Shown one piece after another: positions 21,788-62,084 of a stretch of 64,000 nt of DNA (position 1 is the stretch's first letter; every line of letters starts with the position of its first letter). The notes beneath the pieces are model-generated. The model was not told the origin of the DNA. It did no database searches and saw only the letters and a program-made list of their open reading frames with translations. The position numbers were made by a program, and so were the translations under genes. The stretch is from Lingula anatina (lineage: Eukaryota > Animalia > Brachiopoda): positions 13,144,001 to 13,208,000 of the forward strand of contig CM120646.1 in assembly GCA_051362555.1 (NCBI GenBank), written 5' to 3'.

Positions 21788-21819
21788 TCTACCTGCTTCA
21801 AAATAATTATTTACCTCAT

Positions 21820-34169: not shown

Positions 34170-36443
34170 AAGATGATATACATTATTTAAAATCCATGTT
34201 GGAGCACAAGGCGGTGACAATATCACGTGAGATAAATGTCACCGATTAGTTTATCATATTGTCAGGTCGCCTTACTTTCAATTGTGACTAAATTTTATAT
34301 AACAAAAAATTATTTTTAAATGTTCTTCTAAGTGACACTTCTGCGTACCACCATATTAAAGTTACAAAAACATTAGTACCAGTGCAGCATTTTAACACAT
34401 AGTAGAAAAAGGAAAACAAAAAATAATGTCATGACTTTGAAAGATTAATTTAATATATATTTAATATTTAGAATGAAATATCGACAAGCATTCTTTGAGA
34501 GTCGTTGAAATGTAATCAAAACATTTTAAATGTTAAAACATACCGACAACGCTGCAAGAGACGAGAGGCAGTGACCGGAGAGAGAAGATAAAAGTATAGT
34601 TTACTTGTGTATACTAGGGATTACTCCCATAACCCTATCGCACTAGCAGGATCGATCTATCGCCGATGGGATTCTCGCTAAATTGCATTCAGTAAGTGTG
34701 CCCCCTAAAAGCGTCAGTGGGCGTGACAGACATTTAAGCCGCTTAAACTGAATGCAATTAAGCGAGACTCCCCTCGGAGTTAAATCGATCCTGCTAGTAC
34801 GATAAGTTTATGGGAACCCAGTCTTAGAAGTGTTGCAGTCTCTCACGAACTACCTTTGCTGAGGGGGTGGGGCCCGATAAAGACACACCCCGTGGAGCCA
34901 TCATTATCATGCTCGCTGAAAGTATTCAAATAGTATCCAAAGATCGAACTTACTGTGTAGAAAAAAAGGCACAATATGTGCACTCAGTCCGACCTTAAGA
35001 GTGGGTGCGGATTGCATTGTGTAATGACAGTGCTGTTGCATTAAAATCCAGCTTCGATTGTTACAAGTGAGAACGTGTGTTCACGGGAGGGGGGGGGGGG
35101 GGCTATATACTTACTTAATTAAGCAACATGCCCATAGACAGAGATCAGACAATTTACGTAACTGACATGTAGGGACACAAAGACATTCAGCTAAACAATG
35201 TGTGACCCAGGACATCCCTGCGTTCGCTGATAACGTGTACAATGCGTCATCAGATAAGGTATCAATTGGGTTGATGGGACAGCGGCATAGGCACACTTTG
35301 CTTATCATGCGATTGTTCAAAATATATGAACATTGCTGCAGTCACAATTGACATTGGCCCGAGTACAGCTCACCAACAACGACTATTGTATATCAACATC
35401 GAGGCAGAGGGGAACGGTGGGCACATTCAAGCGTGTCTGGCCTAATTGGTGGACCCGGGGCTACACACATAGTACATACATGCTCAGTAGACTATTTCCT
35501 GGTAACGTTCTCCGTTCTCCGGTTCAAGCAATAAGCTATTGTCTCTGTAAACGCTGCACACGTGAATACCTGCTATGTGAGTGAGCAGTTTTGACCTGTG
35601 TCTCCCGAGCTTGGTAGCGTGTGAGCGATATCTGCTCCCGAGGCTTGATGTGATTGCCGTTTACCTGGCTGGGTCCATGGATAACAGTAAGGGCATTTTT
35701 GCAATCAGTCACAAAACAGCATGTCTCTGTTACATTTGGCGGCATCCAAGGGTCAGTTGACACTACAGTAGGTTTTTGTCGGAAATTTCTAATTGTGGGC
35801 AGTCCTTCTGATGCCTCGACCGTTGGTTTGTTTTTTGGTAATGACGTAAATTCGGTGTTTATTTCATGACGGCAGGACAACTCAGTTCAAGAATCGTAAC
35901 TTTTCTCAACAGTTAAATATCGGTATTTACGTTAAAAAGCATGGCTTATACATTTTTACAAATAAATTTTGATAGTAGCTGATGTAATTTCATTTTACCA
36001 AGAGACTAGATACGGTAAGGATATTTTGGAGTTAAAACGATGGCCAACAGTTTTCGTCGAATTTATAACTAACGTACTACATGTATACATGTATAACTGT
36101 AGATGTGTAGCAATGAGAAATATATTTTGAAAATGGGAATACAGTGAAGGGAAAACAATACATTTTTTCAAGATTGTAAGTGAGGTCGTCTAGGCGTAAC
36201 AAGCATCATGTGGGATACACATGCTGGAACGATCTCCACAAATGGTTGAAAATCTTGAACATCACACGTTTCTGTTTGCAGTCTTGGAGTTCTTCCGTAG
36301 TCCGGTAGGTAGCGCTTGCATCGCGTTTGTGGTTCTTATGCTTGCGGCCTACTGCTGCTGGGCTGGCTACAAAAGTGGCAGAACTAGAGGGATAACGCCT
36401 GCAGAGAGAAGGAGGTTATTGCTGGCTGCAGGTAAACCATTCG

Positions 36444-36478
<35 letters not shown>

Positions 36479-38320
36479 GCTACAGAACTACTAGTATCTA
36501 TATGAACAACATAGCAAACTATGTAAACACCTAACAACAATTGCCTCTTATCATAGCACTACCTAAATATGCTGTTGTTTATCGTTTCGTTATCAGCAGT
36601 TTTTATTCAGTTTAATCAGTCATCCCTTATTTAACGATGTTTATGAAGAATTGTTGAATAGAAATGATTCAACCCCTGTGTTATCACGCGCTTGAAATGT
36701 ACACACATCGATTGGGTGCATTCTGAAAACCAGAGTCACTCTGTCCTATGCTTAGTATCTAGGCATTACCAAAACTATCAAGATGTCCTTGCTATCCAAG
36801 GCGATGAAGATAGACACAACGGTTAAGGAGCAGGGATGGAATATACAGCATGGAACAGATTTCAGTTGCATCTTCTATACGTGTATCTGAAAGTCCTTTC
36901 TTGGACATGGCATACATCTATAGTCCACCAATATTTATTTTTTTCTGAGCCCGTTTTCAAGGTTGTTGTTAGAATATTTCTGGATTCCATTGTAATTTTG
37001 AACGATTTTTGTCAATCAAACTCAACTTTTGATCTCTGTCTCTCTAATTCTTAAAGCATTTATGCTATAGCAATTTCGTTTTATTCGGATTAAAAAGTCG
37101 TCATTCATAACTTTATCAGATGAATCCCACTTACACACATTTATTTAATCTGTGCTTATGTATTTCAGGTAACTCAGACAGCACTTCCATAGACTATGAA
37201 CATAATGCTCAAAACACTTTCACTGATAACCGAATGGCTGGAAGGACGCAGTCGACCAGTAATAACGATGCCGTGTCCGGCGTGACGGTACCCTCTGCAC
37301 CTCCTCCTTACCAAAGACGCGACGAGCCCCCGCCCTACGTAGACGTCTATTCTTCGTCTCCACCGCCTTATTCGGAAGTTACAAAGGCGAATCAAAATGT
37401 GGGCACATCCCAAGTCTGATGTTTTAGTCCCTCCGTATATATAATGCTTTGAGGGACGTACAGTATGCCACGAGATACATGTGGAACAATACATGTGCCG
37501 TATGCATGGTGACTGGATCAAAGTGAAGCAAAATCGTGCAGCTAAGGTGCATGTATACCACACAATTTGGCACATTGTGAAAGAGCATCGTCTTTCATGG
37601 TGCTGTTCGCTTTTGTTATATTATAATTTTATAAAGATCCAGACACTGTCAAGTGCGTTTGCCGATTTCATGGTTTTACAGTCCTTGGGATCGCCCGTAT
37701 TATTATTTATAGCATTTTCAGTCTGCATTTGACTAGAATTATATGTGGAAGAGAACGTTTCAAAGATGGTATTCAATAATAAGGTAACATTCATATCTAA
37801 AATCGTTCAGGAAATCACCCATTGCTGCAGTCCATTATAAGGCAGCAGGTGGAGGAAAACAGCAATTTTTTAAGGCGGATACCGGATTTATAATGGATGC
37901 AGATTATTTAAGGGAACGTTCGCATAAGCAAGTAGTGTTAAGCTAAAGGATACAACTTTGAGCCACATTTTCACACAAGGATTTATGTCATCCATCTGCC
38001 GAGTGATACCGTTTTTACCTTTACAAGAGTAAATGCAAAGATCGTTATATGGGACAGCGCTCGGTTAATTATATTTCCCTCATTTATTTATTAGGAATTC
38101 AAGATTCAAGTTGTGTCAAGTAACCTATGTGTTTATTGTGAATAAGGGCATATTTAGATTTTGATGCCCCATGTAAAGCAATGCCTATGATAGTTTATCT
38201 GAGGGGCAAAACGCGTTTATCGCTGCTGTCAGGGCGGGTAGGGGGCGGTATTGAGGTCCATATTCATATCTATCCTTATATCTATGGCCTTGTTTATGTG
38301 GGTTATCTTTGTCAACAAGT
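34170..38320 (+). repeat. Duplication block B, direct copy of ~9730-13753
   Basis: Colinear from cattattt.aaatccatgttggagcac to tttgtcaacaagt; more substitutions and indels than block A, including a ~200-bp insertion near 35886-36085. Confidence 0.93.
36282..37419 (+). CDS. Second copy of PSAP/PPxY single-pass membrane gene
   Basis: Exons 36282-36431 and 37169-37419; same splice sites and phases, frame intact, all PY motifs retained. Confidence 0.7.
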
Positions 38321-39977: not shown

Positions 39978-42900
39978 TTAACTTACGCACCACCGCAGTA
40001 TGAGTGCCAGTAATACATTTGGAAATAACGTGTGTGTAATGGACGGGCCGCCTGAGAGACTGGTGACTGTGGTAGGCTGGAAGTACAGAAAGCAAACGTT
40101 TCTGAGCAGGTGCTAATTAGAATAATATCGAATTGTAAGCACTATTAATTGTGACATTTACGTGTTAAATGACTTAACGATGGTGTCGTAGCAAGGTGAC
40201 TGTGGTAGGCTGGAAGTACAGAAAGCAAACGTTTCTGAGCAGGTGCTAATTAGAATAATATCGAATTGTAAGCACTATTAATTGTGACATTTACGTGTTA
40301 AATGACTTAACGATGGTGTCGTAGCAACAGTCCGAAGGTTGGAGGACCCGAATTAATGGATGGATAAAGTGTATAGTGTACTGGTAATAAAGTAAAGTTC
40401 ATCAGAGGCGGGTCTATACAATATCTTCTCTTTGTGAAATCTACAGAAAAGGCTTCACGTATTATACCAAAGTTTCTAGTTCATTGTCTTCAGTGTGAGA
40501 TATTTATTTTTTTTTATCTCATTCTTACCTCTTTAAAGTCTATACTAAACTATTACGATATGTAATAAATTTACCTTATAGGTGGACCCTCCCTGTTGGT
40601 TTTTCTTGTGTTCCTCGACGGTAGGGTGTGCTGTAGTCAACGTACTTGATGATACGTGTACGCAAGTCGTTGTCATAGTATTTTGCAGCGAAATGGCGGC
40701 CGACTGTTGCCTTACAAAAATATAACCGACCCTGTCTGTTCCTTGTAGAGAGATTCGGAAAGGCTGGAATAAGAAGAGTAAAGTTACCAGAGATGAATTC
40801 ATTGTCATTTATTTTAGGGGCCGCTCTTTCTTTTCAAAACTGGGGTGTAATATTTATTGGCACGTTTTTTATGTACGTGCTTCGTCAAAAACATTAAGTG
40901 AAAAAGTAAATTTTGAGCATGGGCAAAATAATCAAACATTTTAATTTTTTTATTTTGTTCATGTTTTGAGTTACTGCCGCCATGCCTTAAACTGCGGAAT
41001 TTCAATTTCAACTTCTAAATGAACTGGAAGGAAACACACCCAAAACATTCTGAAACATGTATATAGCTCTATTCCCGGGGCCAATTTGTTTCACGTGTTC
41101 ATGTCCACAGTATCTACATGTACGTCACCCACCTGTTCTGGAATCGTCACTGAGGACCGAAAGGTATTTCTATTTTTCCCGGCTCCCTGGACAGGAGTCG
41201 TACCATATAGTTCCCGCGCAGTGCCGTCAACGAGGCTTACCCTGGTCACGTTGGCTATGTCGTCTATTGCTGTGAGTCGCGTATCAAGTTTCACTGCCGT
41301 GCCTTGAAAAATGCCACAAACAATACAAAGCTAAGGAACAGGGGTTTCCAAATGAGAGGCCGGCGCTAGAGATGGTAATCCCTGTTCCTCAACATTATGT
41401 CATCCAATAAACTCGGATTTTTTATTATTATTATTTTTTTTTTTGGAATTAAAATGCAACAATTGGTCCCACTACGACCCATCAAGCCACTATTTGATAA
41501 GTTCAAGCTTCATCTGACCGTTCCAAAGGTGTTGAATGAATGTTATACAGTGTATTTTAGGTCAGTTTCATAACCATGGAATGAAGTACAAGGGCAGGAT
41601 AGAAAAAATGACGGAATTAACTTATTGTAAACTCAATTAACTATGTGTTTTTGACTTAACAGCGGACTAATACGATACTTAACCAGGTATTGGTAGTCCT
41701 GTTAAGGGGAACATGTCCCCGGTGTCAGGGTCCATGAATTGATAGGTAAAGTCCAGCGTGCTTCTCCCTGTCACCTCAAGGTCGTACGTGTCTTTGATCT
41801 GTCGCCGTATTGTCCACATGCCTGGGGTGACATTCTGAGATTTAAAAAAAAAAGCATAAAATGCTGGACCTCGTACCTGTACAGGTAAATGATTTACCGC
41901 AAGATGAAATATATAATCTCATATAATAAAACATTATAAAATATATAAAACTACTAAAACGGGTGTGGCGAATGATTACTCTGATCCATATCATAAACGC
42001 TAGAAAAAGATAGCATTGCAAGTGGGATTAGTACATCCCGTGGTAAAAAATGCGTATTTCAAAACAATGTCAGTGTTTGTTTTTGAAATGTATATATTAC
42101 GCTGGTCATTAATTTTCGGGAACGATAATCAGATATATCAGATATGGATAAATACGGATTGTGATACTTATAAGAGAAACTTACTGCTATATGATAGCGA
42201 CGAACTAATGTCCCTGCCCGCGTCTCTTCAAATCTGGAGTACAGGCTTCCTATAAAATTAAGTCTTCACATAGTGAAATTCAGATATAAGTTCCAGGAGA
42301 TTGTCTCACGAATAGAAGTTTAAGTCCGTCCTTGGTTCAAAATCATAGCCTACTACGACTTAGACGACTATTTAAATGCAGCTTTTGATCGCTTAAAGTT
42401 TAAAGTCTTTTTGAGAAAGAGGCACTAGGACAGCATTAGAACTGTAACATGGTGCGGTCGTATCTTTTAATGTGTGATATCTAAGCATGCCCAGATGTAT
42501 TGTTTAAGAAACAAATATAGACTAGATTAACATTAAATGATACATTAATCTGAATCTGTTAAAATATGTAATCGAATTAACAGATGAGTGTACAGTGTAC
42601 GTGCCATTTGGATGATAAAAGGCCAGAGATGGGGTCTGTGTTTCTCCTTGAGCCTCCACATAGACATCTGACACCAGACTGTCCACGATGACGTGTTTGT
42701 CTGAACCTGTTCCTGCTGTGGACCACTGGAATTTGGCTAGTGTGACCTCCGCTGTATTTTTTACTGATCCCTATATTAACATGGGATGATTTCACCAAAA
42801 GCTAATGCAAAGGTGTGAACTAAGACCCAGTAAACAAGAAATACTAGATCCTAGGTATGAATAAATGGATGAGCAAACAATCAAAATGTGTGGATACGTT

Positions 42901-43737
42901 CAAAATACGGTAAATGGACGAATAAAATGAATGTTTTATTCTGTCTTGAGATGTCAAAAAGATTAAGCCGGATGTTTTTGTCTTTAGCTTATTTGGAATT
43001 GTGAAAACGACTGCAAGTAATTTGATACATGTACATGTATGTCATGATTTCTATTAATTACATGTATATATAAAAATATACGGTATTTATTACTATAAGA
43101 GTGGTCACCTCTATAACTTGCACTGTATTGTTGACCTGTCCCTTGTTTGTCTTGTAAACGTCTCCTCCAAGAAGATCCTTCAATTCCTTGAAAATATCTC
43201 TAATTGAACGCTGAGCTAGAAACACAGATTTAAACTTTATCTGATAATAATGGTAAACATTTTATAAATAAATCCATCTAAATAAGTGCAGGTAATACAT
43301 GGATGTGCCCCTGCATTCACACGCAACTGTGAAATCTGAAATAACTAGAATACATTTTACAAATTTAAACAACGAGTAACTATATTGTATGCAGTAATAA
43401 TCAAAGCACATATCTGATAGGCAAGGGTTACGGTGCTGTATGTGGTATCATTTCCCTCCCATGTATCAAATATCAATTATCCACATACCGCTACTTATCT
43501 ATACGATGATTATTTCAGTATTATAAGCCCATTCCTTGGCACCAACACCGTAACATTATGATTCGTTGTAATTGCACTGTACCAATGACAGTATATATCA
43601 CAGTAAAAAAATATCTATAACTAAAAGCTATGGTCTTCCGTATTGTAATTATGCAAAGAAACTCTTTGTCCCTCACCGAGCGCCACGTCGCACATGAACA
43701 AGCACTGCACTATGATCAGGTACGCCACCGTCCACAT
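39978..43737 (-). CDS. N-terminally truncated VWA7 paralog with own signal peptide and probable GPI signal, 8 exons, ~335 aa
   Basis: Exons 43737-43677 (MWTVAYLIIVQCLFMCDVAL, G|gtgagg), 43215-43109, 42770-42605 (GC donor), 42249-42185, 41834-41684, 41302-41133, 40763-40575, 40076-39978; exons 2-7 match VWA7 exons 10-15 in sequence and phase (166- and 65-nt exons identical in length; PGMWTIRRQIKDTYDLEVTGRSTLDFTYQF vs PGVWKITRMIKDEYDVSVTGHTTLDFTYQF). Last exon less certain. Confidence 0.75.
40062..40327. repeat. Perfect 133-bp tandem duplication
   Basis: 40062-40194 equals 40195-40327. Confidence 0.95.
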
Positions 43738-45253
43738 TCTGCACAAAGAATCAGTCGCAGAAAACAATTATCAGTTTAAAAAATACAGCATTTCATGCCC
43801 TGTCTCTTCTGCCATTTTCCTCTCTGCTACTAATATTCTGTCGAGGTTATCTGTGCCGTGGCCTTAACCACACTTCACCAAATACAATATTGGTTTACGT
43901 GTCTCTTTAATCACTGTTGCCACAGATACCCGCGTTCAGTTGAGATAATCCTCATGGTGACAGCGTTTAATCAGTGTTTGTCAACAGTGCATGACAGTCA
44001 CAGGGGTCAATATACTGCCACAAAGGTGAATATTGCCATAGAGCTCATGATCAACAATAACTCTTTCTCTCTCTCTCTCTCTTTCTCTGTATGTATGTAT
44101 ATTAGGGATTATCAGTTTTCTTTTTTTTTCCTTTGACTTGTAAAATATATGATATTCCCGAAACAACTGAAATGAAAATCCAAGCTATAAGTAATGCGTT
44201 TAAACACCGTCTGCGGGAGGAACATCATAAAATAATGTATTAGAATGATACTGAGGGGAATTTTTCATGGTTTATTACTTTGTTAATTCTACACTAGTTT
44301 ATCAATATATAAATGCACTTGGAGCTTGTCCCGCGTCAAGATGTATAATGTTATCAGGGTGAAATACTTCGATCAAATTGTTATACATGTAACTGATTAC
44401 CAACAGACTCAAAACAAATCGGTTTTTTTTTTTTGGGGGGGGGGGTGTTTACAGGAATACAGCAAACAGTATCACAGATATAATTTATTTATTTATTTAA
44501 GATGACGAAAATAAATAAATGAAATAAATAAAAGCGCCATTAGTAAAGATCTCAAACGATTAAGCAAACAGGATTGAGTTATACAGTAACCTAAGTTTTT
44601 CATTACTGTGACATGGAGAAGTTCGAGGTTACACTTAAAATGTTAAATATAAAAGACCATTAATATGCGTTGCTCAAATCTATAAGTGTGCATGGTATCA
44701 CAGTAGAACAGAAATATTTTGGGAAATGAAGCCAATTTATTATTAAATTCACGCATGCTTTGTGTTTTGATAAGTGACACATGTATGTGCATTACGCAGG
44801 ACACGAGGAGGAGGAGCGTCAAAATATGCTGAAACAATTTCAGCGGGACCATGAAAATCTACGGTCTTTTGATTCCCAGCTTTTTATAAGGACAATCAGT
44901 TAAAAAGAGAATCATCTAGAAGCGATGATCGATGAGTGAAAATACAGATTCAACTGGAGGATGCTAAGTAACTTGGTGCGCAATTCACATGCAGAATACG
45001 TGTCATGTTACAGTCGGTGCGCAATTCACATGCAGAATACGTGTCATGTTACAGTCGGTAAGCAGAATAACAGCAAGATGTCCTGCACTGAGTCCGTCAC
45101 TTAAATGTACGACTGGTAAATACCCGGTATATGTTTATAGTTCATTTTTAACTATCACCAAATTACAAATTTTTTAACAAGCCTAACTAGTGTGTCAATG
45201 AAGGAATTAAATAAACGTCTGTTATATCTGTGATAGCAATCGGACACGTTATT

Positions 45254-48200
45254 TTAGAAGATGGAGCCTCTTTCCTGTTCAGTCCCAAACACGCTACCAC
45301 TCTCGGGATCGAGGCTGACAATACACGTGATGGAAGGTTTTTTGGAACCCAACATGATCTTCTTGCCTTCCAGACTCTTCTTACTGGTAGGAGGTAGATT
45401 CCTCTTTCGAATCACCACCATAAGCGCCGTTGCAATGATAAGAAGGACCGATGTGACGATGACAGTTGTCAGTAGGGTTCTGTTAGATGACAAGGATTTT
45501 GATGCAACTGTAGCCTGGAAAGGATATAGTTTAGGTTATTTATTTTAAGTGAGAGGTCTTCTATTGTTATACCTAGATCAAACATTTTGCTTTTGACTAA
45601 AGTTTAAAAGTTTTTTTTCTTTTCAGTTAAAAATTAGAAAAAGCAAAATGTTTATCTGCATTTGTGTCGCCGTAAAAGGCCGTCACCCATAATTATTTTC
45701 ATTGCGTGGAAGGCACCACTTGACTTACTTTAAGAGGTTTGAGTGACATCATTTTCTCATAGATGTCGTCATCATAATACTTGGCAGGTTTCGAAACTGA
45801 CGGTGCAACCATCGCAGAGCTCTGTCTCATCACAACGTGCCCCAAATTGTCAGTGAACCAGATCATCACTGAGAAACTCTGAAAGTGAGGGTCTTAGTGA
45901 AAATATTTAAAATGTGAATAACATGATTTTAAAGCATACAATTAATTGGGTGTACATGTCACATTTAAAACACCTGAGGCAAGTTATTCACAATACTTTT
46001 TTCTTTCACATATATCATTTCTATAGATTATACTCCAATATAATTCCTTGGATAGATAAATAATTATATAACACCAAATTACTCATAATCTTAATGTTAC
46101 CTTTACTGGGATGACACCGTGTCCAATAAATCGTCTAGGTCCATTTTTAGTCATCGACATGACGTCTGACATGAGAAGTCCATTTCTGTCAACAAAGGAC
46201 ATCTTGGCTAAGCCTGCAACTTGGACCGACTGCGTCAAAGAGATCAGTATCGTCGTATTTTCCCCTTGAAATAACAAAAGCATCAGTGCATGACAATATG
46301 TTGCGTAAGTTTCATTTTAACTGTTCTTCATGAAGTAATATCAAAGCAGTTGATTTTCTGAAACGAATCAGGGTGTTACTTCTCAGTTCACTTAAGATCA
46401 CTTCATAGTTTTTTATTATATATTAAATGACGATAATTAATTAATATTGCGACTGTCTTGTTATTTACTGTATTCCCCATACCAATTTACAGTCCTCTGT
46501 TAATAATAATAATAATAATAATAATACCTAGACGCAGTTTTGATTAAAAAATGCTAGTGTTACAGGTACAGGACACTGAATTACCTGCTAATGGCTGACC
46601 ATGTACAGGAAACACATTGCCAGTGTTTGTCACCGTTTCCAGGAACTGATAAGTAAAATCCAGCGTGGTGTGACCTGTCACGCTGACGTCATACTCGTCC
46701 TTGATCATGCGGGTGATCTTCCACACACCAGGGGGCGGTTCCTGCCAAAGGAAAAATTAAACGCGCAACTTATTATACAGCATTGGTCAAAAAGGTTGTC
46801 CCACCTTCAGTATCATGTGCTTTTATTTATAAATGATCCCATCACAGGGGAAGATTGTTATAAATAGTGATTTTCATTCCAGATACCATTACTAACATGA
46901 TTAGTGATACAGAAAATACAAACTAGCGGTGAAGATATCAAAATTTAATACCATTTATTCACCTTAATTACATGTACCCCCTCAAATCCGACGTTTCACT
47001 GTGATTTTCACAGAGGTAAAGAAGTCTCCATTAAATTGAAATGACACCACCAAATGTCACCAAATTTTCACACATTTAGCATTAGTGCGTGCTCGTTAAA
47101 GTCTCCTTGTCTAATAGCGTCTGTGTTTACCGCGTACTGTAATTATATCCTGTAGGTGGCGCGGCCTGCCTTCAACGAGGGTAACAATTCTGTTTTATGG
47201 GATATTGTCCCATTCTTCCAAAAGAGCTCGGGGGAGTTTGTCCAGATTATCAGGAGTTACGTTTTTCTTCGCATTGCACACTTCAATTTATGCCACAGAT
47301 GTTTAGTAAGATTAAAAACATGGCTCAAAGATGGTTGCTCCATCCTCTGAACATTAGGTTTTTGCAAAAAATCACTCAGCAGACGAGAGTTGTGAGCAAG
47401 TGCATTCCCACGATGACGTCTGCAGTATCCCTGAAGTCACCTCTTGCAAAAAGAATGATAGATTTGTTGAGAATGTTTCAGTGAATTGCCCCAGTATCGT
47501 TCTTTTCCGGAAAGAACAATGCACTAAAACCATGGGCTTGGAATTTTCTCCAAACGTGGACTGAGCTGACACCTCAGGCGATGTTATCCTGCACAAACCT
47601 GCCAAAAGGCATTCTGCAACATGTCTACGGACCCTAATTTGAACATCGAAGGCATACAAGAAATACCTTGATTCTTCAGCAAAACCAACTTGTTCCTAGT
47701 GATGGTTGACCAAGTTCTCGTAGTTCTGGGGTCACTGAACCTATCATTGTCAACAGATACCTCATTCCATCTGCAAGAGGGGACTTCGAGGTGATCCAGG
47801 CTTCATCATGACAGCACACTTGCACACAGTTGTCATGTGTTCAGTGATCTGTTACAGAAACCCAATGTTCTGAGGCTGGAGAAACCAACTTTGAATCCTG
47901 ATAATAAACCTACTGAGCAGCCGTGGCATGGATTGAAGTGTGCAATCCAGAGGAGAACATAACCCCAACTAGTCCGGACCAATTCCGCCAAGCTTTTTAG
48001 GAGACATGGGCAAAATTCCACAAAACAGAATTGTTACCCTTGTTGAAGGCAGTGGCGCCGTCTACGGGAGATGATTACAGTGAGCGGTAGCCACACACGC
48101 TAATAGACACGTGACTTTTAACGAGCACACCCTAATGCTAAAAGTGTGTAAATTTGGTGACATTTGGTGGTGTCAATTCAATTTAATGGGAATTTCTTTA

Positions 48201-51200
48201 CCTCCGTGGAAATGACATTGGAAAATCGGATTTGAGGGGGTACATGTAATAAATGTGAATAAATATTATTTAATATGGATATATAAACGGTAGTTTGCAT
48301 TTTCTGTACCACTTATCATGTTAGTTATGGTATATGGAATGAAAATCACCATTCATAGTAATTAACTCCTGTGATGTGATGATTTATAAATAAAAGCACA
48401 TGAAACCGGGGGTGGGACAACCTTTTTGACCAATGTTGTATATTGTATTCCAGATCGCGCTTTTATATCGATTTTGCTAATTTCTATTTTTTTATTCCTA
48501 TTTCAGAAGCAAGATAATAATTGTTTGAAATGTGAGATTTGTCTCGGGTATAGGTATTGTTTTCTTGTGGCAAGCAATACTGCAAACTTTCTTGAAATAG
48601 TACCAATGTATGCAGTGCAAATGTATTCAAGCATTGAAATGCAGTTACTCTGACCATTTATCGCTATGCTTCTGCAGATTGATACTTGCAGTACGAATAG
48701 CAGAACTCAGTAGAGTACTCACTTTAATGTTGAACACTTGGACAAAATTCCCTGCACGTTCTAATTTCATGTCACCATGCTCGATACCTGCGTATATACA
48801 AAATGCGTACAATTAGTGGTCGGGTGCTTCTGTCACGCCTTGTCTCCTTTCAGCCTATACACTCTATAATACTGTTTTAGTAGGAAACAAGTTCAAGACT
48901 GGCCTGGGACCTTTCACGTTTTTCTACTTACAAAATGTCACCAATAACTGTTACTGACGGTACGAAAGAGACAATGTTATTTTCCTAAACACTGGTATAG
49001 AAAAGAAATTGACAGTACACGTATACATATTTAAACGCCCATACCTTCAGGATTGATTATCTTAATCGCGGGAGTGCTAGACAGTCCTCGCACTCTGATA
49101 GACAACTGAGCCACCGTGTGGTCCACATGGAGCATGCGAACATTGGTCTGGCTGGAAAACGTCCATACATGCTTCAGTAACGTTGCCTGAGCCGTATCTT
49201 CAACTGACAACTGAAAGAGGGAAAGCATTACATAAAAAATACCAGTACCGATAAAAATTCTATAAAGAGATGATTTTTGGGGGCAAAATTCCACTTACAA
49301 AAAGATCTGTTAATTGGCTGATATTTAGGCACGATTAGTCAAAGTTGCATTCACAAGTATATTTATAAAATATCACTCTCATGGACCTGTTTTACAATAC
49401 AGCTGCATCCCCAAACTTGGTAAAATCGTTTAGAATGAATCGTTTAGCTATACAGTTCAAGATAAATCTTAAGCTGTCCACTTAAATAAAATCAGCATTG
49501 ATCTTATACATAAAGTCATATATTTCTAGTTACAAAACTGGAGCAATGTATTATTGGATTAGATTTTTTGCTGATTTATCCTGGTTCAAAATGGTATATA
49601 CTTTTTGGTCTTAAAGTTCAATTTTCGGACTAAAGCTCTCAAGTAAAACAGGCCCCTGCTCATATGTTCCCATATACACTGTAGGTACGACTGCTCACTG
49701 ATATGATTTTGACCGTATCGTTGATCTCGGTTTTGCTGGTGGTGAAAACTGTTCCTCCTACAGCACCGGAGAGTTTAACAAAGTTATCACCTGTATATGC
49801 TGGAAAATGCGAATGTGATAATGGAATCTAATGCATGAATTACGGTTTTGTTAAATGAAATGTAAGACTCCGTTCCCATATCTAAATCGATCTAGCAGGA
49901 TCGACCAATTTCTCGCTAAATTACATTCAGCTTAAGTGGCTCTGGTGTCTGGCATGCCTAGTGAAGCTGATAAGGGGTAATTAACTATCGTTTAGCAGTT
50001 TCAGTAGGCGTGCCAGACATCTAAACCGCTAGAATGATCTAGGTATGGGAACAGGGTCAAAGCCAGATTTTGGAATGTTGTTGCGTACATTCCTTTACAG
50101 GTGAAAACATTTAGATCTCTGCTGCGTGCTATCTTAATAATATTAGCCGATGGATTTGTCAGTCAGTGTTGGAATGGTATGGCATGAGCACTTTTGTAAC
50201 ATACAGTTAAACCCAGCGAGAACCAAAAAAACCTGTGCGTTTCCGTCTCCTTGAACATTTGCCGGTAAGAATGAGCTGTGGCGAAACCCGTTTGGCAGTT
50301 GCTAAAGCTATAAACTCCGACGTTCTTTCTGGGTCTTTTGCATCAGCGTCAGTGAAAACAAACATCTGCGAATCTGACTGGCACACTTTCACAGCTGTAA
50401 TTCAATAACATCAGTGATAGGCATAATCCATACACGTATTGTCAAAAGGCTATGAAGAACTCTTCCATTAAAAAACTTAGGTTCCAATAGACAGTGGATG
50501 CCAGTCCCACCCTGTAGAAAGCTATTAATGGCAAATTGCAAGACCAAAAATACATTTAAAATGGAATTTTGTTTGAGTACTAGGAGGGAGAGAGCCATTC
50601 ATCTCTATCATATGTAACAAGTATATTAAAGATATGACCTATCGAAAAAAATTTGCGTTAATAATAAGAGTTGATAAGAATTGACATGGCAAACATATGA
50701 AAGGCCCATTGCATTTTCTTTTCTTCTTTCTTTTGCAAATTGGCCACTAACCTCAAATAATCATGAATAATGTATTACTTGGTTGTAAGCTTTGTAGTGT
50801 TTACAGCCAAGTGTCTTTAAAATTTAAAGTCTTGCATTGATTTAAAGTCATGTGTAAACCTGTGTTTTGTATATAGCTGTGCACTATAGCCATAAGAACA
50901 TTTTAATGTTTTAAAAAATACAAACAAGCATAAAGATGTACGTTATGCAGTGACATTCAGTACACCTTATCGTGAAGTGTGACTTCAGAGATAAGTCTAT
51001 AGACTGTACACTACCTTCTATCATGCCACTGAGCAGGTATTCCGGACAATCACCTCCTCCTGTTACCTGGATTGCCTGCATCCACGACATCATCACATCC
51101 GGGTCAGTTGTTACCCGAACCTCGGTGAGCGAAGCTGTAATGTGACAGACATTCATATCAAAATAACGTCAACCTTACCATAAATTCCGAAAAGGTTTTA

Positions 51201-51672
51201 GTAATATGTGACCAAGCGAGATGTATGACCAAGCATGCGCCAAGATTAAAAACAGAAATGTTTCATCTTTTTATAACACACTCACACGTATGAGTGTACG
51301 TGTCATACAATTCGTACCTGGATCATTGAAAGTTGCCAGTACATATTCAGAAGGTGCGTTTAGTTTGCCTTTAGTATTCTGTATGATTTTCAGCGTCTCC
51401 TGTTTCACAGCAGCAACTTCGTCGCTCATAGATCCGGTTGTGTCAATTACAAAAACTAAGGAATTCCCAGATGACAGTTGAAATAGCCTTTTGAAGATGG
51501 CATCACCAATTTCCTGTCGCAACCCAATGCCTAAAACAAGCAGGATGCTTTTAATTATAAATGTGTTCAATTGAAATTAGAATGCTGGCAATACATAACG
51601 CCAAATTGCCCACACTGAATTTTCCACAAGGACTAACCTAAACTTTGAAAAGTATTGTAAAAACTTTCCAGG

Positions 51673-51743
<71 letters not shown>

Positions 51744-52235
51744 GGCCGTAGCCTGAGCAAAATGCCAGGGGGGGCAGTAGCGGACACGAGGGGTCGAAGC
51801 CCCCGAGGGGGGAGGGTGTGGGAGGGGGTGTCCCCCTCCAATGGTGTGGAAAATTTTTAAAAACTGTATGTATAATACTGCATTCTGGTGCATTTTAACT
51901 GTTTTATTGCTCAATCAGAAGTCAGAAATTGTGGGTTCATTTTGCCATAAGTATAGCTCCCCTAAGGATAGCTCCCTGAGGGTGAGCTTTTTGGCATGAA
52001 CTGAGTTGGCTGAAAACAGTACACCTTTGTTAACAGATTGTTGAAAGGTTGTCTAGTGGCCATGAGTGCATTTTCTCACAGAATTGATACCAACTTTGCA
52101 ATTATTTTTTTATTAATTATTATTTGATTAATTATTATTTACCTTTGCGATTATTATTATTATTTTTTTTTTTTGCACCTCAAATCCCGGGGGGGGGGGG
52201 CAGCTGCCCCCCCTGCCCCCCCGGAGGCTACGGCC

Positions 52236-52296
<61 letters not shown>

Positions 52297-55200
52297 CTAC
52301 ATCATACCTTGGCCATCAATGTACATTTCTGTAGCACGGACAGCCGTCTTCCCAGCATCCGAGTGAAGATAATAATGTGGAGATAGCTTTTCAACGGTCG
52401 TCTCCTTGTTAATGCCGCCAGTGGCTGTCTTGACCTTGGAGTCTGCATCAGATGTACCGCCATGGCTACATTTCCCAATCCCACGAGATTTAAATTTAGA
52501 GTCTAAAACGAAAAAAGAGAGATGTCATTTTAAAGATAATGTGCCAAGTCCAATTCTAGAAAACAGCGCTTGTATTAAATATATTGTGCGTGCAACAACG
52601 TGTGCATCGTGCGCATAATTTCATAGTCACGGCACAGTTTCACCTGTATGCAGTGCATGTTATGCCATACCCACCCGGCTTCTGTATGTCTTGTCCAGTC
52701 CTGTAACCGCTGGTCAAGACCCCGCCTGTCAGGATGATATTATCTCTGCACTGCCTAGAGGAAAAAGCATGTGGAGTATGTTAATGAGATCCAGAAAATT
52801 TTTGGGGATAAACAGCCATCTTAATACTTGCAATTTATGCTATTCGATTTCAAAATAAAACGTGTTTTAATGCAAAAGAGTACCAGTAGAGGACGGGGCG
52901 TTTTATGCAATGCATCCGTGTAGTAAGTGTAGCAATATATGTCGGCGTGGAGCTGATGTCGGGGACTATATTGGCTGTGACTGTGGTATTAGGTTATGTT
53001 ACATGTAGGCCAGATTCGAGGTTCACTGACATGACGAGAACGGACACCTGTCCGTGGTGCAGTACAGCTTACTGTACTTACCCAGTACAGCTCACACACG
53101 TCATAATACCTGGTGAAGCCACGAGAGGAATGGGTTTGCCCTTGATACCTACAACAATTTTGTGAGGTCAGTATTTCTGTTATTCTCCCACATATTTGAG
53201 CCATTTTAGACAAAAAAAACTTAATTTAACATAACAAGTAAGCAAATCAATAATAATTGTAAGTTTTGAAATAGCGGAAATTTAAAAACAAAGTAGAAAA
53301 GCACTCAGAGAGCGCAGACCTCCGCCAAGGCAGCAAAGTCTCCATCCAATGCCGTTTCACCCCTAAATTTTCGATATTTTTGATTACTGATGATTGATTA
53401 TTGATCCGGATCACCACCAAAAATTAATCATCTGTTCCTTGGCCCACTTCTGACAGTTTCTGAAAATTTCATCAAAATCGGTCCATAACGTTTTGAGTTA
53501 TGTTGATGACAGACAGACAGACAAACACACAAACAGGAGTGAAAACATAACCTCCTTGGCGGAGGTAAAAAGTTGGCAAGCTTTACCTAAGTCCTGGTAC
53601 ACAACAGGTCCATTCATTTCAATCCAGTTGGTGTTACTGTAAAAATCCTGAATCATGTGTAAAAGAACTCCGAGCAGTCGACGAAGGACGTCAAAATTCG
53701 CATTTCTAGCTTTAACGAGGCCTTTGAAGAGCTCTCGTGCGGCACTGAGTTTCTCAAACCCTGTTGGGAATAAAATAAACAAAGGACGTAAAAAATGCCA
53801 TATCACCCACAGGCTGTCCCTGCGCAGAATCAACAGAGTATCTCTATTGTAGAATACGTCCTGGGCATGGAAATTCTGGCGTTGAATAGCAATAACAATA
53901 ACACGTTGCTTTTTAGTAAATATACTTCTAAGTGATCATATATTGCAATAATTTAGAAACAAGGTTCTTCATCACCTCGACTTAAATTGTTGCCGCTGCT
54001 TTCTATAGCAGCGGTAAGGAATCCATGCCTTCGCCTTACGGGTTGGTTTAAAACACACGGAATGAATGAATGAACTAATGAGTTTTTATAAAAATAAAAT
54101 CCTAGGATGACCCGAAAAGGTCCTCGGACTTATTTCCTATGCGCGTGACCCTACTCCTTCTCACCTTCTTTGATCTGTTCTCCATTGAAATGAAACAAAG
54201 CCCCGCCTCTATGGTCCTTATCCACAATGGCGTTGAACTTAACAATTGTCTCAATGGATTCTTGCATCTTTTTCGCAAACACCTGTCCCTCTAAAAAATA
54301 GAAAACACATATATGCATTTGGTTCTGCATCTTGTATATATAACAGTTGGATGGTATTTATTCTGCAGAAAAGACCCTTCATTTTAAAGTCCCCATTCAG
54401 GGGCGGATCCAGAGCTATATACTGACAGTCTTCCAAATTAGCTTTGTAGATTCATCCTCCAATTTTGACCGTCTTCCAACATGAAAAATTGGATACCTGT
54501 CAATGTAAACTTGAAAATCTCACCGTCTTCCGGAAGACCCAGAAGACGCCCTAAATCCGCCCCTGCCATTCAACTTTTTACAGCGTACCGCAAAAAAGTT
54601 TTAAGACACTCCCAGTGGGTTAGATTAATGTATAGGAGCAGGTTCTATGAAAAACTTTGATCAGATTTGTGTTTTAGGAGATTGTTTATGATTATTTTAA
54701 TCAAATTTGGATAAAAAAAGTCCTGCTAAAACAACTAGAATAAAAAATTAGAAAACGAAAACTATTTATCATGATTTCGGAGCACAGCCGGAAGAAGGTC
54801 ATGACCTGGATTTCCCCACGCTCACAACCAATCACAGCAGGGTTTAGTCAGAATGAGATGACGTCACGATGCAACGCAAGTTTGTCAGAAAAGTTGTAAA
54901 TCTTCTCTTATATAGTATATTCTAAATCAGCTGTCTGTACAAAACTAACTTCAAAAGTGAAGCAAGTCGGAATAATGTTCAGATTACGTCGCTAACCATA
55001 AAAGTAATTCCCGCATACATGTATCTTGTTAGTAACCATCTTTTCGGTACACGCACCGATCAAAAACAGAAAACATAAAGCCCAAAACGCTCTTATACCT
55101 GAACCAGCTTTGTATAAGCTGAAATATCGTCATGAATTATAAACAAGCTTATACGATAATCATACACACTTGAGACCTGTGAAGTGCCTACTCACGTTGC

Positions 55201-56213
55201 GAGAAGTTTTGCCAGTGCCTCGTTATGTAACACCTAATTCTGTTTTTAGTTTCTTCCACCTCCCCAACTCCCTCCCAACATACACAGTCTGAGACCTTCT
55301 GTGTCTGTGTCTGTCTCTTATTTGTTTCCGTATTTTGCGAACCGGAATAAGCTACTTTTTTTTCTTCTCCTTATATCGCGCTCTTCGGACTTTTCGCGCG
55401 TCTCCATGTGCGCTGTCTTGGCGCCAAATAGTAACATCCGGGTCTCAGCTGTAGTATTTCATTCATAGTAAACCACGAGACTTAGCGAGAAACCGTACCG
55501 TGAGATGGTAGCTGAGTATTTAAGACAAGTCGTCTTAAATAAATTAATGGAACTTAAAAACGGTTTTAGGTAGCTTCATTTTCTGAACGGTTTTGGATAG
55601 GAAATACCTTGGCCATTATGGGAAAATTGGTGAGGTTTCCAGGAATATTCATTTTCTTGCTATATTAAGAGTTTAACCCACTGAGACAGCCTTTAAATAA
55701 CCCAACATTATAATATCTATAATATCTGAGTCGTAAAATAGTTAAATACATGCAGTTACATTACCAGGGGCGGATTGAAGTCTTCTGGAAGACGGTCAGA
55801 TTTGCAAGTTTTCATTATGGGTATGTATTTTTTCTGTCGGAAGACGGTCAAAAAATGGAGGATGGATCAACAAAGATAATTTGGAAGACTGTCAGAAAAT
55901 ATTTCTGAATCCAGTACTACATTTTACACTGCAACTTACTGCCGTAATATGCATCAAAAAGCCTCTGAGGTGTAGGATCCTTCAATCCAGTCAGAGTTCC
56001 CTTGGCGACCTTCGTACCATCCGGCTTGGGAGTGTCTTCAAGGAGCCTCGCTATGACACGCAGCAAGGCCGACTCCGTGATATCATCGTGCTTATAATTC
56101 GAGGCAGTCGGTGAGTTCCCAAAATCGTTGTCATGGTTAGGTAGGAACCCGCTCGTGAAGACGACCAAACATAATACGCAGAAAATCAGGAAAGACCACT
56201 TGGTCTCCTCCAT
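45254..56213 (-). CDS. VWA7: VWA7-like protein with C-terminal transmembrane helix, 16 coding exons, ~824 aa
   Basis: Exons: 56213-55940, 54290-54165, 53760-53587, 53148-53082, 52754-52675, 52502-52308, 51530-51318, 51134-51015, 50394-50233, 49799-49699, 49210-49045, 48787-48723, 46741-46585, 46264-46101, 45878-45729, 45514-45254; all GT-AG, phases consistent, 2475 nt total. Signal peptide; family motifs HDDIT, FHFNGE, LHMIQDFYSNTNW, LTSGY, GKCSHGG, GGINK, SPHYYLH; VWA FVIDTTGSM, GGGDCPE, VFTDA; RRRKR; TM in last exon. Symbol denotes family, not proven orthology. Confidence 0.9.
46778..48438. mobile_element. Fold-back Tc1 relic in VWA7 intron 12
   Basis: TA-flanked TIR cagcattggtcaaaaaggttgtcccacc; ~600-bp imperfect inverted arms; decayed transposase motifs VGFAEESRYFLY..IRVRR (- strand, ~47690-47620) and LNPDNKPTEQPW..RRLREMITVSGSHTR (+ strand, ~47890-48103). 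Confidence 0.8.
51741..52238. mobile_element. MITE inserted in a (TA)n microsatellite, VWA7 intron 6
   Basis: TIR CAGGGCCGTAGCC / GGCTACGGCCCTG with long (TA)n tracts on both sides. Confidence 0.85.
53288..53570 (+). mobile_element. HINE/DINE-1-like short element in VWA7 intron 3
   Basis: Subterminal inverted repeat acctccgccaagg (53318) / ccttggcggaggt (53554), (GACA)n tract, 3' hairpin. Confidence 0.6.
54398..54565. mobile_element. Short CAGGGGCGGAT-TIR element with 5-bp TSD
   Basis: CAGGGGCGGAT ... ATCCGCCCCTG flanked by CCATT; related inverted copy at ~55765-55920. Confidence 0.8.
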
Positions 56214-58389: not shown

Positions 58390-61026
58390 TTACTTACTGT
58401 AGCTGCACTCAACACATTCAATTTCTTCCCCAATACACTCCTGACCGGCAGAATCTGGAAGAGGATTGTCGCAAAGTCTTCTACGACAACTATAATACAT
58501 GTACCTACTGCCAGTGCCAGTGCCAATGGAGGGTTGCCGGCATGGTTTCCAGTCACTCCAGGCTCTCCAGCCTTTGTTAGCTATGAAAGTAAGGAATACA
58601 AATGGTAAAATGTGTTCACATTGGGAGTTAATGAAATTTAGGTAAATTCTTGGGCAAGTATCCGGTATGGTGGATAAACATTTAGATACGCCAGGTAAAA
58701 TGGTCTCTACTAATTTGAACATGCCTTAACTAGTAACAGCTTGATAGGTAACACTTGCAAACTATTTATAATTGAAATATAGCAATATGTTGATAATAAT
58801 ATGATTACATTGTGATAATAATAACAACTTACTTAGGAATTTTGGGAGAAGTGTATTCCAAAACTCCATGCGCCTCGCTTTCAAGTCTCGTTTCACGTTA
58901 GATGACGTCAACCCTACAGTCCACTCCAAGTACAGTTTGTCTGTTGAATCAAACCGAGGCCACGTTGGAACTAGTGGAGCCGAGGTAGAAATTGGATTGG
59001 GATTGCTAAAAAGAGACCAGAGGCATCAAATTCTAATTTTCATGAATGTATAAAAATATATTAGCGCGTCCAACATGTAAACATAAATAGTATTGCTTGC
59101 GTCTGACGTATAACGTGTAATATATTTTTGACAAGCGTAATACGAATTTAAATGTACGTGTTACCTTTTAAAACAATTTAACAAGTACAATTTAAACAAG
59201 ACAGTGTTAAAAATTAAGCAACAGGTTTGAGTGATTCTATCCAAAATAATAAAGCAAGCCAAGACGTTAAGTTGAATTAAAAGAGGCTAGGTAAAAGAAA
59301 AGATTTTCTGCACCTACACTGGTGCAATACAAAACCTCCTTATTAGTTACGATATGAAGGATGCAGGTATATTTTTTTTAAATGATCAAATGATCAATTT
59401 TGATAACTAGAATAGCACTTAGTAAATTCTAGGCATACATTTTTCTAACCGTGTATTTAATGCGTCAGCGAATACCCAAGTAATACTACATGTTATAATT
59501 CGCCTTAGGGCCCAATTCACTCACACTTACCCAGTCCATGCAAAGTTCCCAACGGCTGTCATAAATTGTATACTCAAATCCACTTCTTCATCGGTTGGCC
59601 GCGATGGGAACAGCGCTGCATCCAATACATCCCCAAACATAAAATACAACTCCTCCATGTGGTTGGCGCCATTAATCACTGACGGCCATTTTGAAAAAGA
59701 CGGTTTATGTGCAAAGTTAAGAAAGTAGACGTTAGCATTTTTTGGCCAAAGTAAAGCATGCTCCCATCCGGGGGCAAGAAAAAAAGCATCTTGCCATAAT
59801 TCTAGCCAGGTTTGATGCGCTTTTCGAAGGTTGGGAGACTTATATTCAAATATTACGGCGTCGGTCATAAAATCATTAGCACCCGGATAAAGCATTTGTA
59901 TCAATCCTTTGGTAAAAGATATGGCAGCCGTCGTGTTGATTTCTGGACCCGTTCCTCCAATCCCAAACCAGGCCCCGCTGTCGAAGTTGCAGACAGAAAT
60001 CATGTAGTCTTTTCCATGGGCTCCTGGTCCGGGGTATTCAAGTGATCTGTCGATCACATTCCCATCAGGAATGGGAAGAAGTAAATTTGGCGCAAACACT
60101 GGATCTCTCTGGTAATGCAGAAAAGCTGAAAGTAGTTCGTCTGTTGACTTCTTGCGAAGACAGCGCACAATTATTTCCCCGTGTGCTGACGTGCAATTTA
60201 AAAGAGCTGCGATCGCTCTGCTGTTGTTAATTGTACGTTGTTCAATCAGCGCCCTGTGACGCCTCAGATGATATACCCCACCTAGAGCAATTCCTCTCCT
60301 TACCAGTCCACGAGTACGCACCTGTGGACACGCTGTCAGCAACAAGTCGACAATTACTCCACCTGCTGACTCGCCGCTAACAGTCACGAGGGTGGGGTCT
60401 CCTCCAAATACCCGGATGTTTGTTTGGATCCATTCAAGGAGCCGCACCGTGTCAAACACACCATAATTGCCCCCGAGGTCTGCTTCACCATTAGACAGAA
60501 ATCCAAATATATTGAGGCGATAGTTAAATGTGATGACAATCATGTTACCTTGTAGTGCCAGAAAGGTCCCATTGAACTCCACCCCAGATCCCCACTCGTA
60601 TTTCCCGCCGTGTATATAGACAAATACCGGTAATAGACGTTCTCGATCTGGTACCACTGCTCTCGGGACGTACATGTTAAGGTAGAGACAGTCCTCGCTC
60701 ATAGTCTGGTCTCTTATACGGGCCCGCACAAATTCCTCTGTGTAAAAATGCTCAACCTGGGTTTTATAGCTATGAGGGCAGCACGGGGAGAAAGAACGTG
60801 CATCCCTCGGCCCACGCCAGTTATCAGGAGGTTCTGGTGGCTTCCAACGCAGTTTACCGATTGGTGGCTTGGCGTAGGGAACGCCGAGGAACTGCACCAC
60901 GCGCCCCAGTATGGTATCCGCGACGAGGCCAACAAGGTCGCCGTTTGCTGTTGTCACAGACACATCCTCAGAATCAACAACAGCGTGAATTGTAAAGAGC
61001 AACATGAAACGTATCAATGGTCGCAT
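58390..61026 (-). CDS. Secreted type-B carboxylesterase/cholinesterase-family protein with C-terminal TSP1 domain
   Basis: Exon 61026-59531 (signal peptide, FLGVPYA, SEDCLYLN, HGG, GESAG, NFDS, ANHMEEL), exon 59005-58833 (GNPN..WPRF..FWN), exon 58580-58398 (WRAWSDWKPC..CRRRLCDNPLP..GQECIG..C); phases 2 and 1 match. 3' end unresolved: donor at 58397 or in-frame stop at 58390. Confidence 0.88.
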
Positions 61027-62084
61027 ATTGTTTACCTGTATAATACGCCGACTTTCGATCGGATCCCTATACTATATTTTAGTGAATTTTGACGCTTGTT
61101 GGTATTCTGCACGGGGAAAACATAGGCCTATGTTTGACTGATAACAAATAGGTCACAAAGATGAAAAGCTAGCGAATAGACCCCACTGTACAAGATAGGG
61201 CCTACGTGTACAACCAGCATATATATCAAATAAAGGACACATAAAGCTTGAAAGTGCTTGAATAGGGCCTACTTGACAAAAATATATTAAATGAAATGAA
61301 ATCAAATTAAATTAACATGATCCACGACTTTTGTCCCAAAAGTGCAGTATACTTGATGACAATACCATATTTGTAGGTTTCCCCACTATTCTATAGGGGC
61401 CTATATTAGGCCCCTATACGCACTAAATATCGCGGCTCTTTCGCTCAACCCCCTAACCTTACCGCGAGTAAGTCAACCCGCTTTAGGCCCTACCCTGACC
61501 CAGGTCACGTAAGGCCCTGGTCACTTAAGATCTTGGAGACTGTACTTTTAAATCCTTCATTAAATATGCGTGGGCTCCTACGTAGGTAGGCCTATGTCAA
61601 CTAAACGCAAGTTGGAGTGAAAAAAAATTAAGATGCACATAAATGTTGAAAATGTTACTTTGCACTCGCTTTGACATTGATCAGTACTTCAACATATGGC
61701 AATGATGCAGTGAGCTGTAGTATAGTACTAGTCTAGTTAGCCGATATACGAGTACAGTTCGTGAATCGTATAATGTAGTAGCCCTACGTGTAACATGTAT
61801 ACATCCATTTAATAGCATATTAGTTAGGATGAAATAAAACTTGTTTGCACATTAGTTATTTTAGCTCATTCACTGCCATCATAGAAGTGGAAATGGGGAA
61901 ATGTCAAAAATATAGTATATGACAAATCATCGTCACTCACAACTAAAGCACGGTACAATTTGCAATGCTAGGTCCAGGACCCTTGTATCAACCGAGAAAA
62001 GCTGGAACACAAATAGCCACCGATGTCAACGGTCTCACCTGTAGCATTTTCGCTCAATCATTTCATTCCTCATTCGGACAATAA

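Follow-up and report, generated by a model that had tools for sequence, protein, structure and literature searches.

Two adjacent VWA7-like genes in Lingula anatina

This study concerns a pair of neighbouring genes related to VWA7 in a 64,000-nucleotide stretch of the Lingula anatina genome (contig CM120646.1, positions 13,144,001 to 13,208,000; hereafter the window, in whose own coordinates all positions are given). An initial annotation had proposed that a full VWA7-like gene is followed directly by a second gene encoding only its C-terminal part, and this split pair is real: both genes lie on the minus strand with open reading frames, gene 1 from 56213 to 45254 (16 exons, 824 amino acids (aa)) and gene 2 from 43737 to 39978 (8 exons, 335 aa), the latter starting 1.5 kb past the stop codon of the former. 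The product of gene 2 aligns to aa 475-713 of gene 1 with 33% identity (80/241, E 2e-43), and the intron phases match.

Rebuilt from its splice sites, gene 1 has zero internal stop codons, and all 15 introns are of the GT-AG type. Its product comprises, in this order, a signal peptide, VWA7_N, VWA_4, two beta-sandwiches, a stalk, a membrane helix and a cytoplasmic tail. Exon 1 (55940-56213, minus strand, as for all exons of both genes) encodes the signal peptide and the start of the VWA7 N-terminal domain, with the same beginning found in the RefSeq models P0003 and P0006. VWA7_N continues through exons 2-6 (52308-54290, as 54290-54165, 53760-53587, 53148-53082, 52754-52675 and 52502-52308), among which exons 3 and 6 exceed the cut-off of 27.5 bits for PF25107 (36.6 and 56.6 bits; 164.6 bits for P0003). 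Fold searches barely probed this domain, their results being filled by VWA; an Atlas link to Het-C stands at a template modelling (TM) value of 0.55. Exons 7-9 (50233-51530, as 51530-51318, 51134-51015 and 50394-50233) encode the front part of the VWA domain, strands A-E, and end on the run RRRKR, with a T run directly after the exon 9 donor. Each of these three exons scores above the cut-off for PF25106 (VWA_4), together covering profile positions 1-139, and the motifs DTTGS and FTDA form a candidate site resembling a metal ion-dependent adhesion site (MIDAS). Helix 6, strand F and helix 7 of the VWA domain are assigned to exon 10 (49699-49799) from the structure model of P0003, which is 92% identical to gene 1 over the N-part. 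The galactose-binding-like and immunoglobulin (Ig)-like sandwiches and the stalk follow in exons 11-15 (45729-49210, as 49210-49045, 48787-48723, 46741-46585, 46264-46101 and 45878-45729), and exon 16 (45254-45514) supplies the membrane helix, the cytoplasmic tail and the stop; aa 593-824 are identical to the RefSeq fragment P0132. While single exons of gene 1 remain below the cut-off for PF23560 (GBD_Hemicentin; 16.6 and 13.3 bits), the domain is identified through the end-to-end alignment with gene 2, whose RefSeq copy P0002 scores 31.3 bits. The distal Ig_VWA7 domain (PF23619), which several named VWA7-like relatives carry, gave no match in the Pfam scan of exons 14-15. Gene 1 belongs to the VWA7 family as a short member.

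Judged by its sequence, gene 2 copies gene 1 exons 10-15, to which a separate signal exon and a tail resembling a glycosylphosphatidylinositol (GPI) signal are added, and is as such a derived fragment rather than a full VWA7 member. It is without VWA7_N and without approximately five sixths of the VWA domain; the only Pfam match in P0002 is PF23560, with neither VWA7_N nor a complete VWA. Exon 1 (43677-43737) is the 61-nt phase-1 signal-peptide exon described in the initial annotation. Exon 2 (43109-43215) is the copy of exon 10, with 12/33 residues identical, and encodes an orphan helix-strand-helix. The galactose-binding-like domain occupies exons 3-5 (41684-42770, as 42770-42605, 42249-42185 and 41834-41684), the Ig-like sandwich and a Thr/Ser-rich stalk occupy exons 6-7 (40575-41302, as 41302-41133 and 40763-40575; assigned from the rebuilt exons and the structure model), and exon 8 (39978-40076) ends the protein with a short hydrophobic GPI-like tail. 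The earlier description of the copy as frame-intact holds in that the frame is open, but this requires either a GC donor at 42605 or a shifted pair of GT at 42601 and AG at 42245; both RefSeq models of gene 2 agree with the GC-donor form. That exon 16 had probably been copied as well did not stand: gene 2 ends in an exon that fails to align with exon 16 (score -12) and encodes a short hydrophobic tail instead of a membrane helix, with no cytoplasmic part. Its omega site, spacer and hydrophobic end were judged by eye to follow the GPI-signal pattern, and the gene 2 product is probably GPI-anchored. Near the end of gene 2, the window contains two perfect tandem copies of a 133-bp unit (40062-40327), so that the last splice acceptor is present twice; this duplication may be real or an assembly error, and use of the first copy would lead to an 11-residue tail lacking the hydrophobic end, i.e., a tail-less product.

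The nearest database proteins to gene 2 are the Lingula anatina RefSeq entries XP_013381200 and XP_013399701, with 8 and 16 differing alignment columns, respectively, and the same N-terminal signal sequence; both are computed models and not protein evidence. A search of both strands of the 64 kb for an ATG followed by a hydrophobic stretch and a phase-1 donor gave three matches, namely the gene 2 signal exon and positions 4048 (plus strand) and 8129 (minus strand). The latter two lie in two palindromic 260-bp repeats (4036-4300 and 7885-8142) and are probably part of the repeat and not genes. A second set of N-terminal exons was not found in the window by tblastn.

Modelled alone, the gene 2 protein reaches a mean predicted local distance difference test (pLDDT) value of 81.7, with both sandwiches mostly above 90 and the orphan helices at approximately 80; strand F is not a strand in this model, whereas it is one within the VWA context of the P0003 model. 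Searches with the gene 2 fold returned generic sandwiches only (best Z 11.2, accessory domains of the lipase BlEst2), from which no function follows, and no sequence relative was found in the PDB (best E 0.12). Scored against the family profile of the orphan segment, gene 2 reaches 17.6 bits and gene 1 12.2 bits. Within this segment, gene 2 has Lys33 at a site occupied by Ala in 89% of 94 relatives; together with Ser and Thr, Ala accounts for 98% of them, and Lys does not occur.

Transcription and selection

Eight of nine available raw-read RNA runs were aligned to the window, with junctions listed from three reads upwards and four shallow runs able to show junctions. For gene 1, the joints 7/8, 8/9, 14/15 and 15/16 were listed, and intron 10 was crossed by two reads. 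RNA depth over gene 2 is very low, and none of its junctions reached the listing threshold in the eight runs. The gene 2 signal exon is covered in run X5 by three reads, whose strand is that of the gene 1 reads; since two of their three coding variants match P0001, the C-only protein used as a query below, they may come from another allele or copy. For bins 40436-40619 and 40068-40251, the X5 depth is what two reads would give over the exon bases of each bin, which fits two reads joining 40575 to exon 8, although this is depth arithmetic and not a listed junction. The X5 intron bins between gene 2 exons 1, 2 and 3 are empty, and the 1.5-kb spacer between the two genes shows same-strand depth in runs X5 and X6. 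The initial annotation had called for RNA evidence of gene 2 splicing and of a direct joint from gene 1 exon 9 to gene 2 exon 2 (50233-43215); reads from gene 2 are indeed present, but the latter joint, like those of gene 2, was not listed, the four shallow runs being too low in depth to exclude it.

Read-through of gene 1 introns would offer another type of product. Beyond the exon 9 donor (50233), a stop follows 9 codons past the basic site, and read-through of intron 10 (donor 49699) leads to the ending used in the RefSeq model P0003. Either would yield an N-only isoform of gene 1; no reads for them were seen in the RNA runs.

Between gene 1 and gene 2, the proportions of synonymous and nonsynonymous differences are 0.77 (pS) and 0.47 (pN) over 237 codons, with synonymous sites saturated, and in neutral simulations of the gene 2 frame none of 500 remained stop-free. 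Saturation together with the open frame indicates that gene 2 is old and under selection. Neutral evolution, which had been named as a reason to abandon the proposal, is thereby contradicted as far as the comparison of these two genes reaches. Gene 2 is a real, intact, weakly transcribed and long-selected gene.

A basic site inside the VWA domain

As noted at the outset by the initial annotation, exon 9 of gene 1 ends with RRRKR (aa 465-469), and this run contains the sole R-x-K/R-R of the whole protein, which is the consensus of furin-type proprotein convertases. In the P0003 model (mean pLDDT 90.5), strand E spans residues 454-459, helix 6 474-484, strand F 487-490 and helix 7 493-509; the basic run lies in the loop 460-473, which has the lowest confidence of the domain (pLDDT approximately 60). 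The modelled domain (326-511) matches solved VWA domains with Z 17-19 and a root mean square deviation of about 2.2-3. The expectation that the basic loop precedes the last helix-strand-helix is thus borne out on the model; since the loop connects strand E with helix 6, cleavage there would break the VWA domain in two. Between aa 463 and 802, gene 1 is free of cysteines, which leaves no way to join the two halves by a disulfide, so that any hold between them after a cut would be non-covalent, as had been suggested.

The site is a feature of the family: R-x-K/R-R occurs in the strand E-helix 6 loop of 37 of 64 aligned relatives, compared to 501 of 13,800 random 40-residue windows (3.6%). Five of the 69 rows were left out, having no helix 6 in the alignment, and the remaining 64 include some of bacterial type and some hemicentin-like ones, in which the motif is missing. 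Paired sites on either side of a short spacer occur in many relatives, and in a scallop model approximately 285 aa, bordered by KRKR and RSKR, lie between strand E and helix 6; this could be a fused gene model. From the known consensus we infer that members of the VWA7 family would be cut by a furin-type protease within their VWA domain.

C-only and N-only relatives in other genomes

While a word-based search at similar length with the C-only query P0001 found only the query itself (1 of 2410 candidates), an exhaustive search resulted in 120 proteins. Among these, 82 contain a VWA or N-domain; a further 19 are limited to the C-part and lack a signal peptide, many of them probably being fragments, and 19 combine a signal peptide with the C-part only. 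Besides the query and a fragment of 95 aa, the last group contains 7 proteins of bacterial type and 10 of animal type, the latter coming from Lineus, Dreissena, Mercenaria, Mactra, Haliotis (two), Ylistrum and Saccostrea, plus two Logan proteins grouping with molluscs. The search for signal-peptide proteins that start at the same VWA7 position in other animals, which had been put forward as a check, was therefore positive for a nemertean and for molluscs and extended to bacteria; the occurrence of such signal-peptide C-only proteins there is a new finding, and those of animals do not form one clade.

Helix 6 is kept in 7 of the 10 animal-type proteins, and these 7 represent approximately four lineages; in each of them a pro-region is followed by a dibasic site directly ahead of the helix, canonical in 4 and Lys-Arg only in 3. 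In the other 3, helix 6 and strand F are gone, and a dibasic site is absent as well. Gene 2 is predicted to reach the same N-terminus by signal peptidase alone. Loss of the N-part appears graded across proteins P0013, P0029 and P0014, from a degenerate whole VWA in a Branchiostoma hybrid, through apparent VWA remnants as pro-regions in Mercenaria and Lineus (by eye), to short acidic pro-peptides and, finally, none.

In trees of the C-module, gene 1 and gene 2 are sisters (bootstrap 100 and approximate likelihood ratio test (aLRT) 97; aLRT 99 among 122 rows). The approximately unbiased (AU) test, run on a quick tree with long branches and with a group set by architecture that included two rows without a signal peptide, rejected one common origin for the C-only forms of animals (p 4.9e-6; 26 of 122 rows). 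The C-only form appears to have arisen more than once.

Three N-only proteins were identified by a search with exon 7, one each in Dreissena, Mercenaria and a Logan contig of 1,638 bases. They fall into a single clade (aLRT 100) and stop 4-22 residues past the cysteine after strand E, i.e., at or just after the basic site, and their incomplete VWA domains are identical in 119-130 of 135 positions (88-96%). The Dreissena protein is represented by 7 RefSeq isoforms and one GenBank model, none of which has a C-half. In both Dreissena and Mercenaria, a signal-peptide C-only gene lies on a contig equal in size to that of the N-only gene. Truncated gene models or transcripts with a retained intron could account for the N-only records, and the separate RefSeq N and C models of Lingula gene 1 show that such model splits do occur. 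These (P0003/P0133 and P0006/P0132) were themselves considered as evidence of gene fission and rejected, because the C models lack signal peptides and both the window and the reads join exons 10 and 11. Taken together, the comparison suggests a recurrent pattern in which VWA7 proteins carry a conserved basic site in their VWA domain and C-only and apparently N-only genes break there; it further suggests that the family is cut in two, with halves that can be made by separate genes.

The bacterial secreted proteins start at VWA helix 6 and continue with hemicentin-type sandwiches (loci L001:341-1495, L002:5905-7158 and L017:6001-6936); Atlas clusters of this size were observed in Acidobacteriota. 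No VWA7 N-half was present beside the C-only gene at any of 4 loci examined, two of which are 100% matches to one query and one of which is cut short upstream, and none was found in two incomplete bacterial genomes with C-only genes. C-only proteins can hence exist without a visible partner. VWA_4 matches in these two bacterial genomes were considered as N-halves and rejected, being weak and covering the full-length domain (profile 1-168).

Other features of the window

Four similar intronless open reading frames (ORFs) of approximately 380-400 aa lie on the plus strand (733-1902, 4927-6123, 24878-26023 and 31254-32423), each with an N-terminal hydrophobic anchor and a DDD motif that give them a glycosyltransferase-like appearance by eye; the first of them has no Pfam match at E 0.001. 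Segmental duplications of 89-98% identity (1-3432 with 30511-33945, 9730-13753 with 34170-38320, and 28577-29339 with 62853-62084) mark the region as duplication-prone. A retroelement on the minus strand (18969-23034) with a gag-like ORF, reverse transcriptase, RNase H, a Dam-like methyltransferase and a tyrosine recombinase looks like a DIRS element with long open frames. Furthermore, an intronless carboxylesterase-family ORF of 514 codons with a signal-like start lies at 59527-61071 on the minus strand (PF00135, 344 bits). Intron 12 of gene 1 harbors an insertion (about 46800-48440) that looks like a decayed DNA transposon: its two ends are related and oppositely oriented, and RNA reads map to both of its strands.

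Discussion

We tentatively favor the explanation that gene 2 is an intact partial duplicate that makes a stand-alone, pre-cut C-piece, equal to what would remain of VWA7 after the predicted furin cut. VWA7 would be cut between strand E and helix 6, with the halves held together without a disulfide; departure of the N-head would leave a membrane piece exposing a free helix-strand-helix on top of the galactose-binding-like and Ig-like domains. Gene 2 would make this exposed state directly, its N-terminus set by signal peptidase, and thereby give the cell an unmasked, headless form under separate control, with a putative and likely role in adhesion or in sugar or matrix binding at the surface. 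A stand-alone function is favored by the sister relationship of the two genes and the frame kept open despite saturation, by bacterial C-only genes without a visible partner, by the 3 of 10 animal-type C-only proteins that dispense with helix 6 and strand F, by Lys33, by a gene 2 model that folds alone and by the entry phase of exon 10. The last point also qualifies the proposal that the mature gene 2 protein starts where its parent would be cut. The position does coincide, but with any phase-1 entry further downstream than gene 1 exon 10 the galactose-binding-like domain would be incomplete, and a signal exon captured at exon 10 would therefore meet the cut site irrespective of function. The start of gene 2 is explained by exon phases alone, and the coincidence is not independent evidence at this locus.

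Several observations weigh against a C-piece that acts by itself. Gene 2 has kept the orphan segment as well as gene 1 has, and with strand F not forming on its own the segment looks partnerless. The incomplete, 88-96% identical VWA domains of the bivalve N-only orthologues imply a C-piece that completes them. The searches yielded no ligand or function for the C-piece, and the bacterial genomes without an N-half are incomplete, with the Pfam N-domain search giving no match in any control genome either.

Alternatively, gene 2 may complete the VWA fold in trans, contributing helix 6, strand F and helix 7 to an N-piece of VWA7; the latter would either be released from the gene 1 protein or arise through intron 9 read-through as an N-only isoform. 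The head would thereby exchange its transmembrane anchor for a carrier that is GPI-like or soluble. We consider this possible, if somewhat doubtful, and only a little less likely than the stand-alone reading. The N-only clade of Dreissena, Mercenaria and the Logan contig would need such a partner, and both clams have a signal-peptide C-only gene. Moreover, dibasic site and helix 6 go together in all ten animal-type C-only proteins other than gene 2 (both present in 7/7, both absent in 3/3), the scallop model separates its basic sites by an insert, the intron 9 read-through stops shortly after the basic site, and gene 2 retains the segment that is unformed alone. However, Lys33 replaces a conserved Ala, exon 10 (12/33) is no better conserved between gene 1 and gene 2 than the full alignment (33%), the bacterial C-only genes have no detected N-half, and the N-only records might be modelling or intron-retention products, with no N-only gene 1 transcript seen in the RNA runs. 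In its broadest form, which we put forward as a tentative possibility, VWA7 proteins would be two-chain receptors whose VWA is completed by a detachable helix-strand-helix, and lophotrochozoans would repeatedly have made the chains separate genes, with N-only heads in clams and C-only carriers in brachiopod, nemertean, clams and abalones that assemble in trans and can be mixed, i.e., a naturally split VWA.

It is improbable that the copied exons are chiefly used to give gene 1 a second 3' half, spliced from exon 9 to 43215, with the signal exon as a minor start. The exon phases are compatible with such a joint and the same-strand RNA in the spacer makes read-through possible, but both RefSeq models use the signal exon, the three X5 reads over it stand above an intron bin of zero depth, gene 1 has its own intron 10 spanned by two reads and its own joints 14/15 and 15/16, and the joint itself was not listed at the low depth available. 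That gene 2 is a functionless decaying duplicate or a modelling artefact, as its very low RNA depth without a listed junction and its non-canonical GC donor or shifted pair might suggest, is highly improbable given a frame and splice sites kept despite saturated synonymous sites, two more near-identical intact copies in RefSeq, and same-strand reads that fit the exon ends.

VWA7 is a conserved gene with a little-studied mechanism; in mammals, according to a preprint, it lies in the major histocompatibility complex (MHC) class III region and is linked to lung tumour susceptibility (10.1101/2025.03.27.645633). The present comparison predicts a family-wide cut of the VWA domain that would part the metal-site side from helix 7. 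In integrin I domains, helix 7 controls affinity. The natural N-only and C-only genes are ready constructs with which to probe VWA completion in trans and head shedding as a switch; if docking fails, a pre-cut C-piece from its own gene would still be a recurrent new architecture. A literature search, to which most subscription papers were out of reach, found no paper on VWA7 cleavage or split forms, and the supplementary file of PMC13425148 contains neither the accessions nor "VWA7".

With the VWA7/G7c family (PF25107, PF25106, PF23560 and PF23619), gene 1 shares the signal peptide, VWA7_N, VWA_4 and two sandwiches, and gene 2 corresponds to its C-terminal part; gene 1 differs in running from the first Ig-like sandwich through the stalk into the membrane helix without a distal Ig_VWA7. 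The furin-cut S1 heterodimer of Notch and the SEA heterodimer of MUC1 are cut within a domain and hold their N-piece non-covalently, although their folds differ from that of VWA7, and we know of no separate gene for the post-cut half of either. Hemicentins begin with a head of VWA and about 220 aa, as described in PMC3707829, and share VWA_4 and the galactose-binding-like module with VWA7; they are without VWA7_N, and two hemicentin-like rows of our alignment are without the basic site in the strand E-helix 6 loop. [quoted passage not shown] In the accessible portions of the respective papers, short isoforms of BAI1/ADGRB1 from an intron 17 promoter resemble the post-cleavage piece (PMC11711277), and a "split personality" model proposes that N-pieces are swapped among adhesion GPCR C-pieces, although fragment exchange did not account for function in an in vivo test (PMC3776922). 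The mechanisms differ, with GAIN autoproteolysis, a seven-transmembrane C-piece and a single gene on the one side, and a predicted furin cut in VWA and a duplicated gene on the other; the Pfam matches of gene 1 and gene 2 include no GAIN domain or seven-pass part, and gene 1 has a single membrane helix. As far as these sources go, the adhesion GPCRs and the VWA7 pair have in common a cut within a domain, predicted in the case of VWA7, and a separate transcript for a near copy of the post-cut C-piece.

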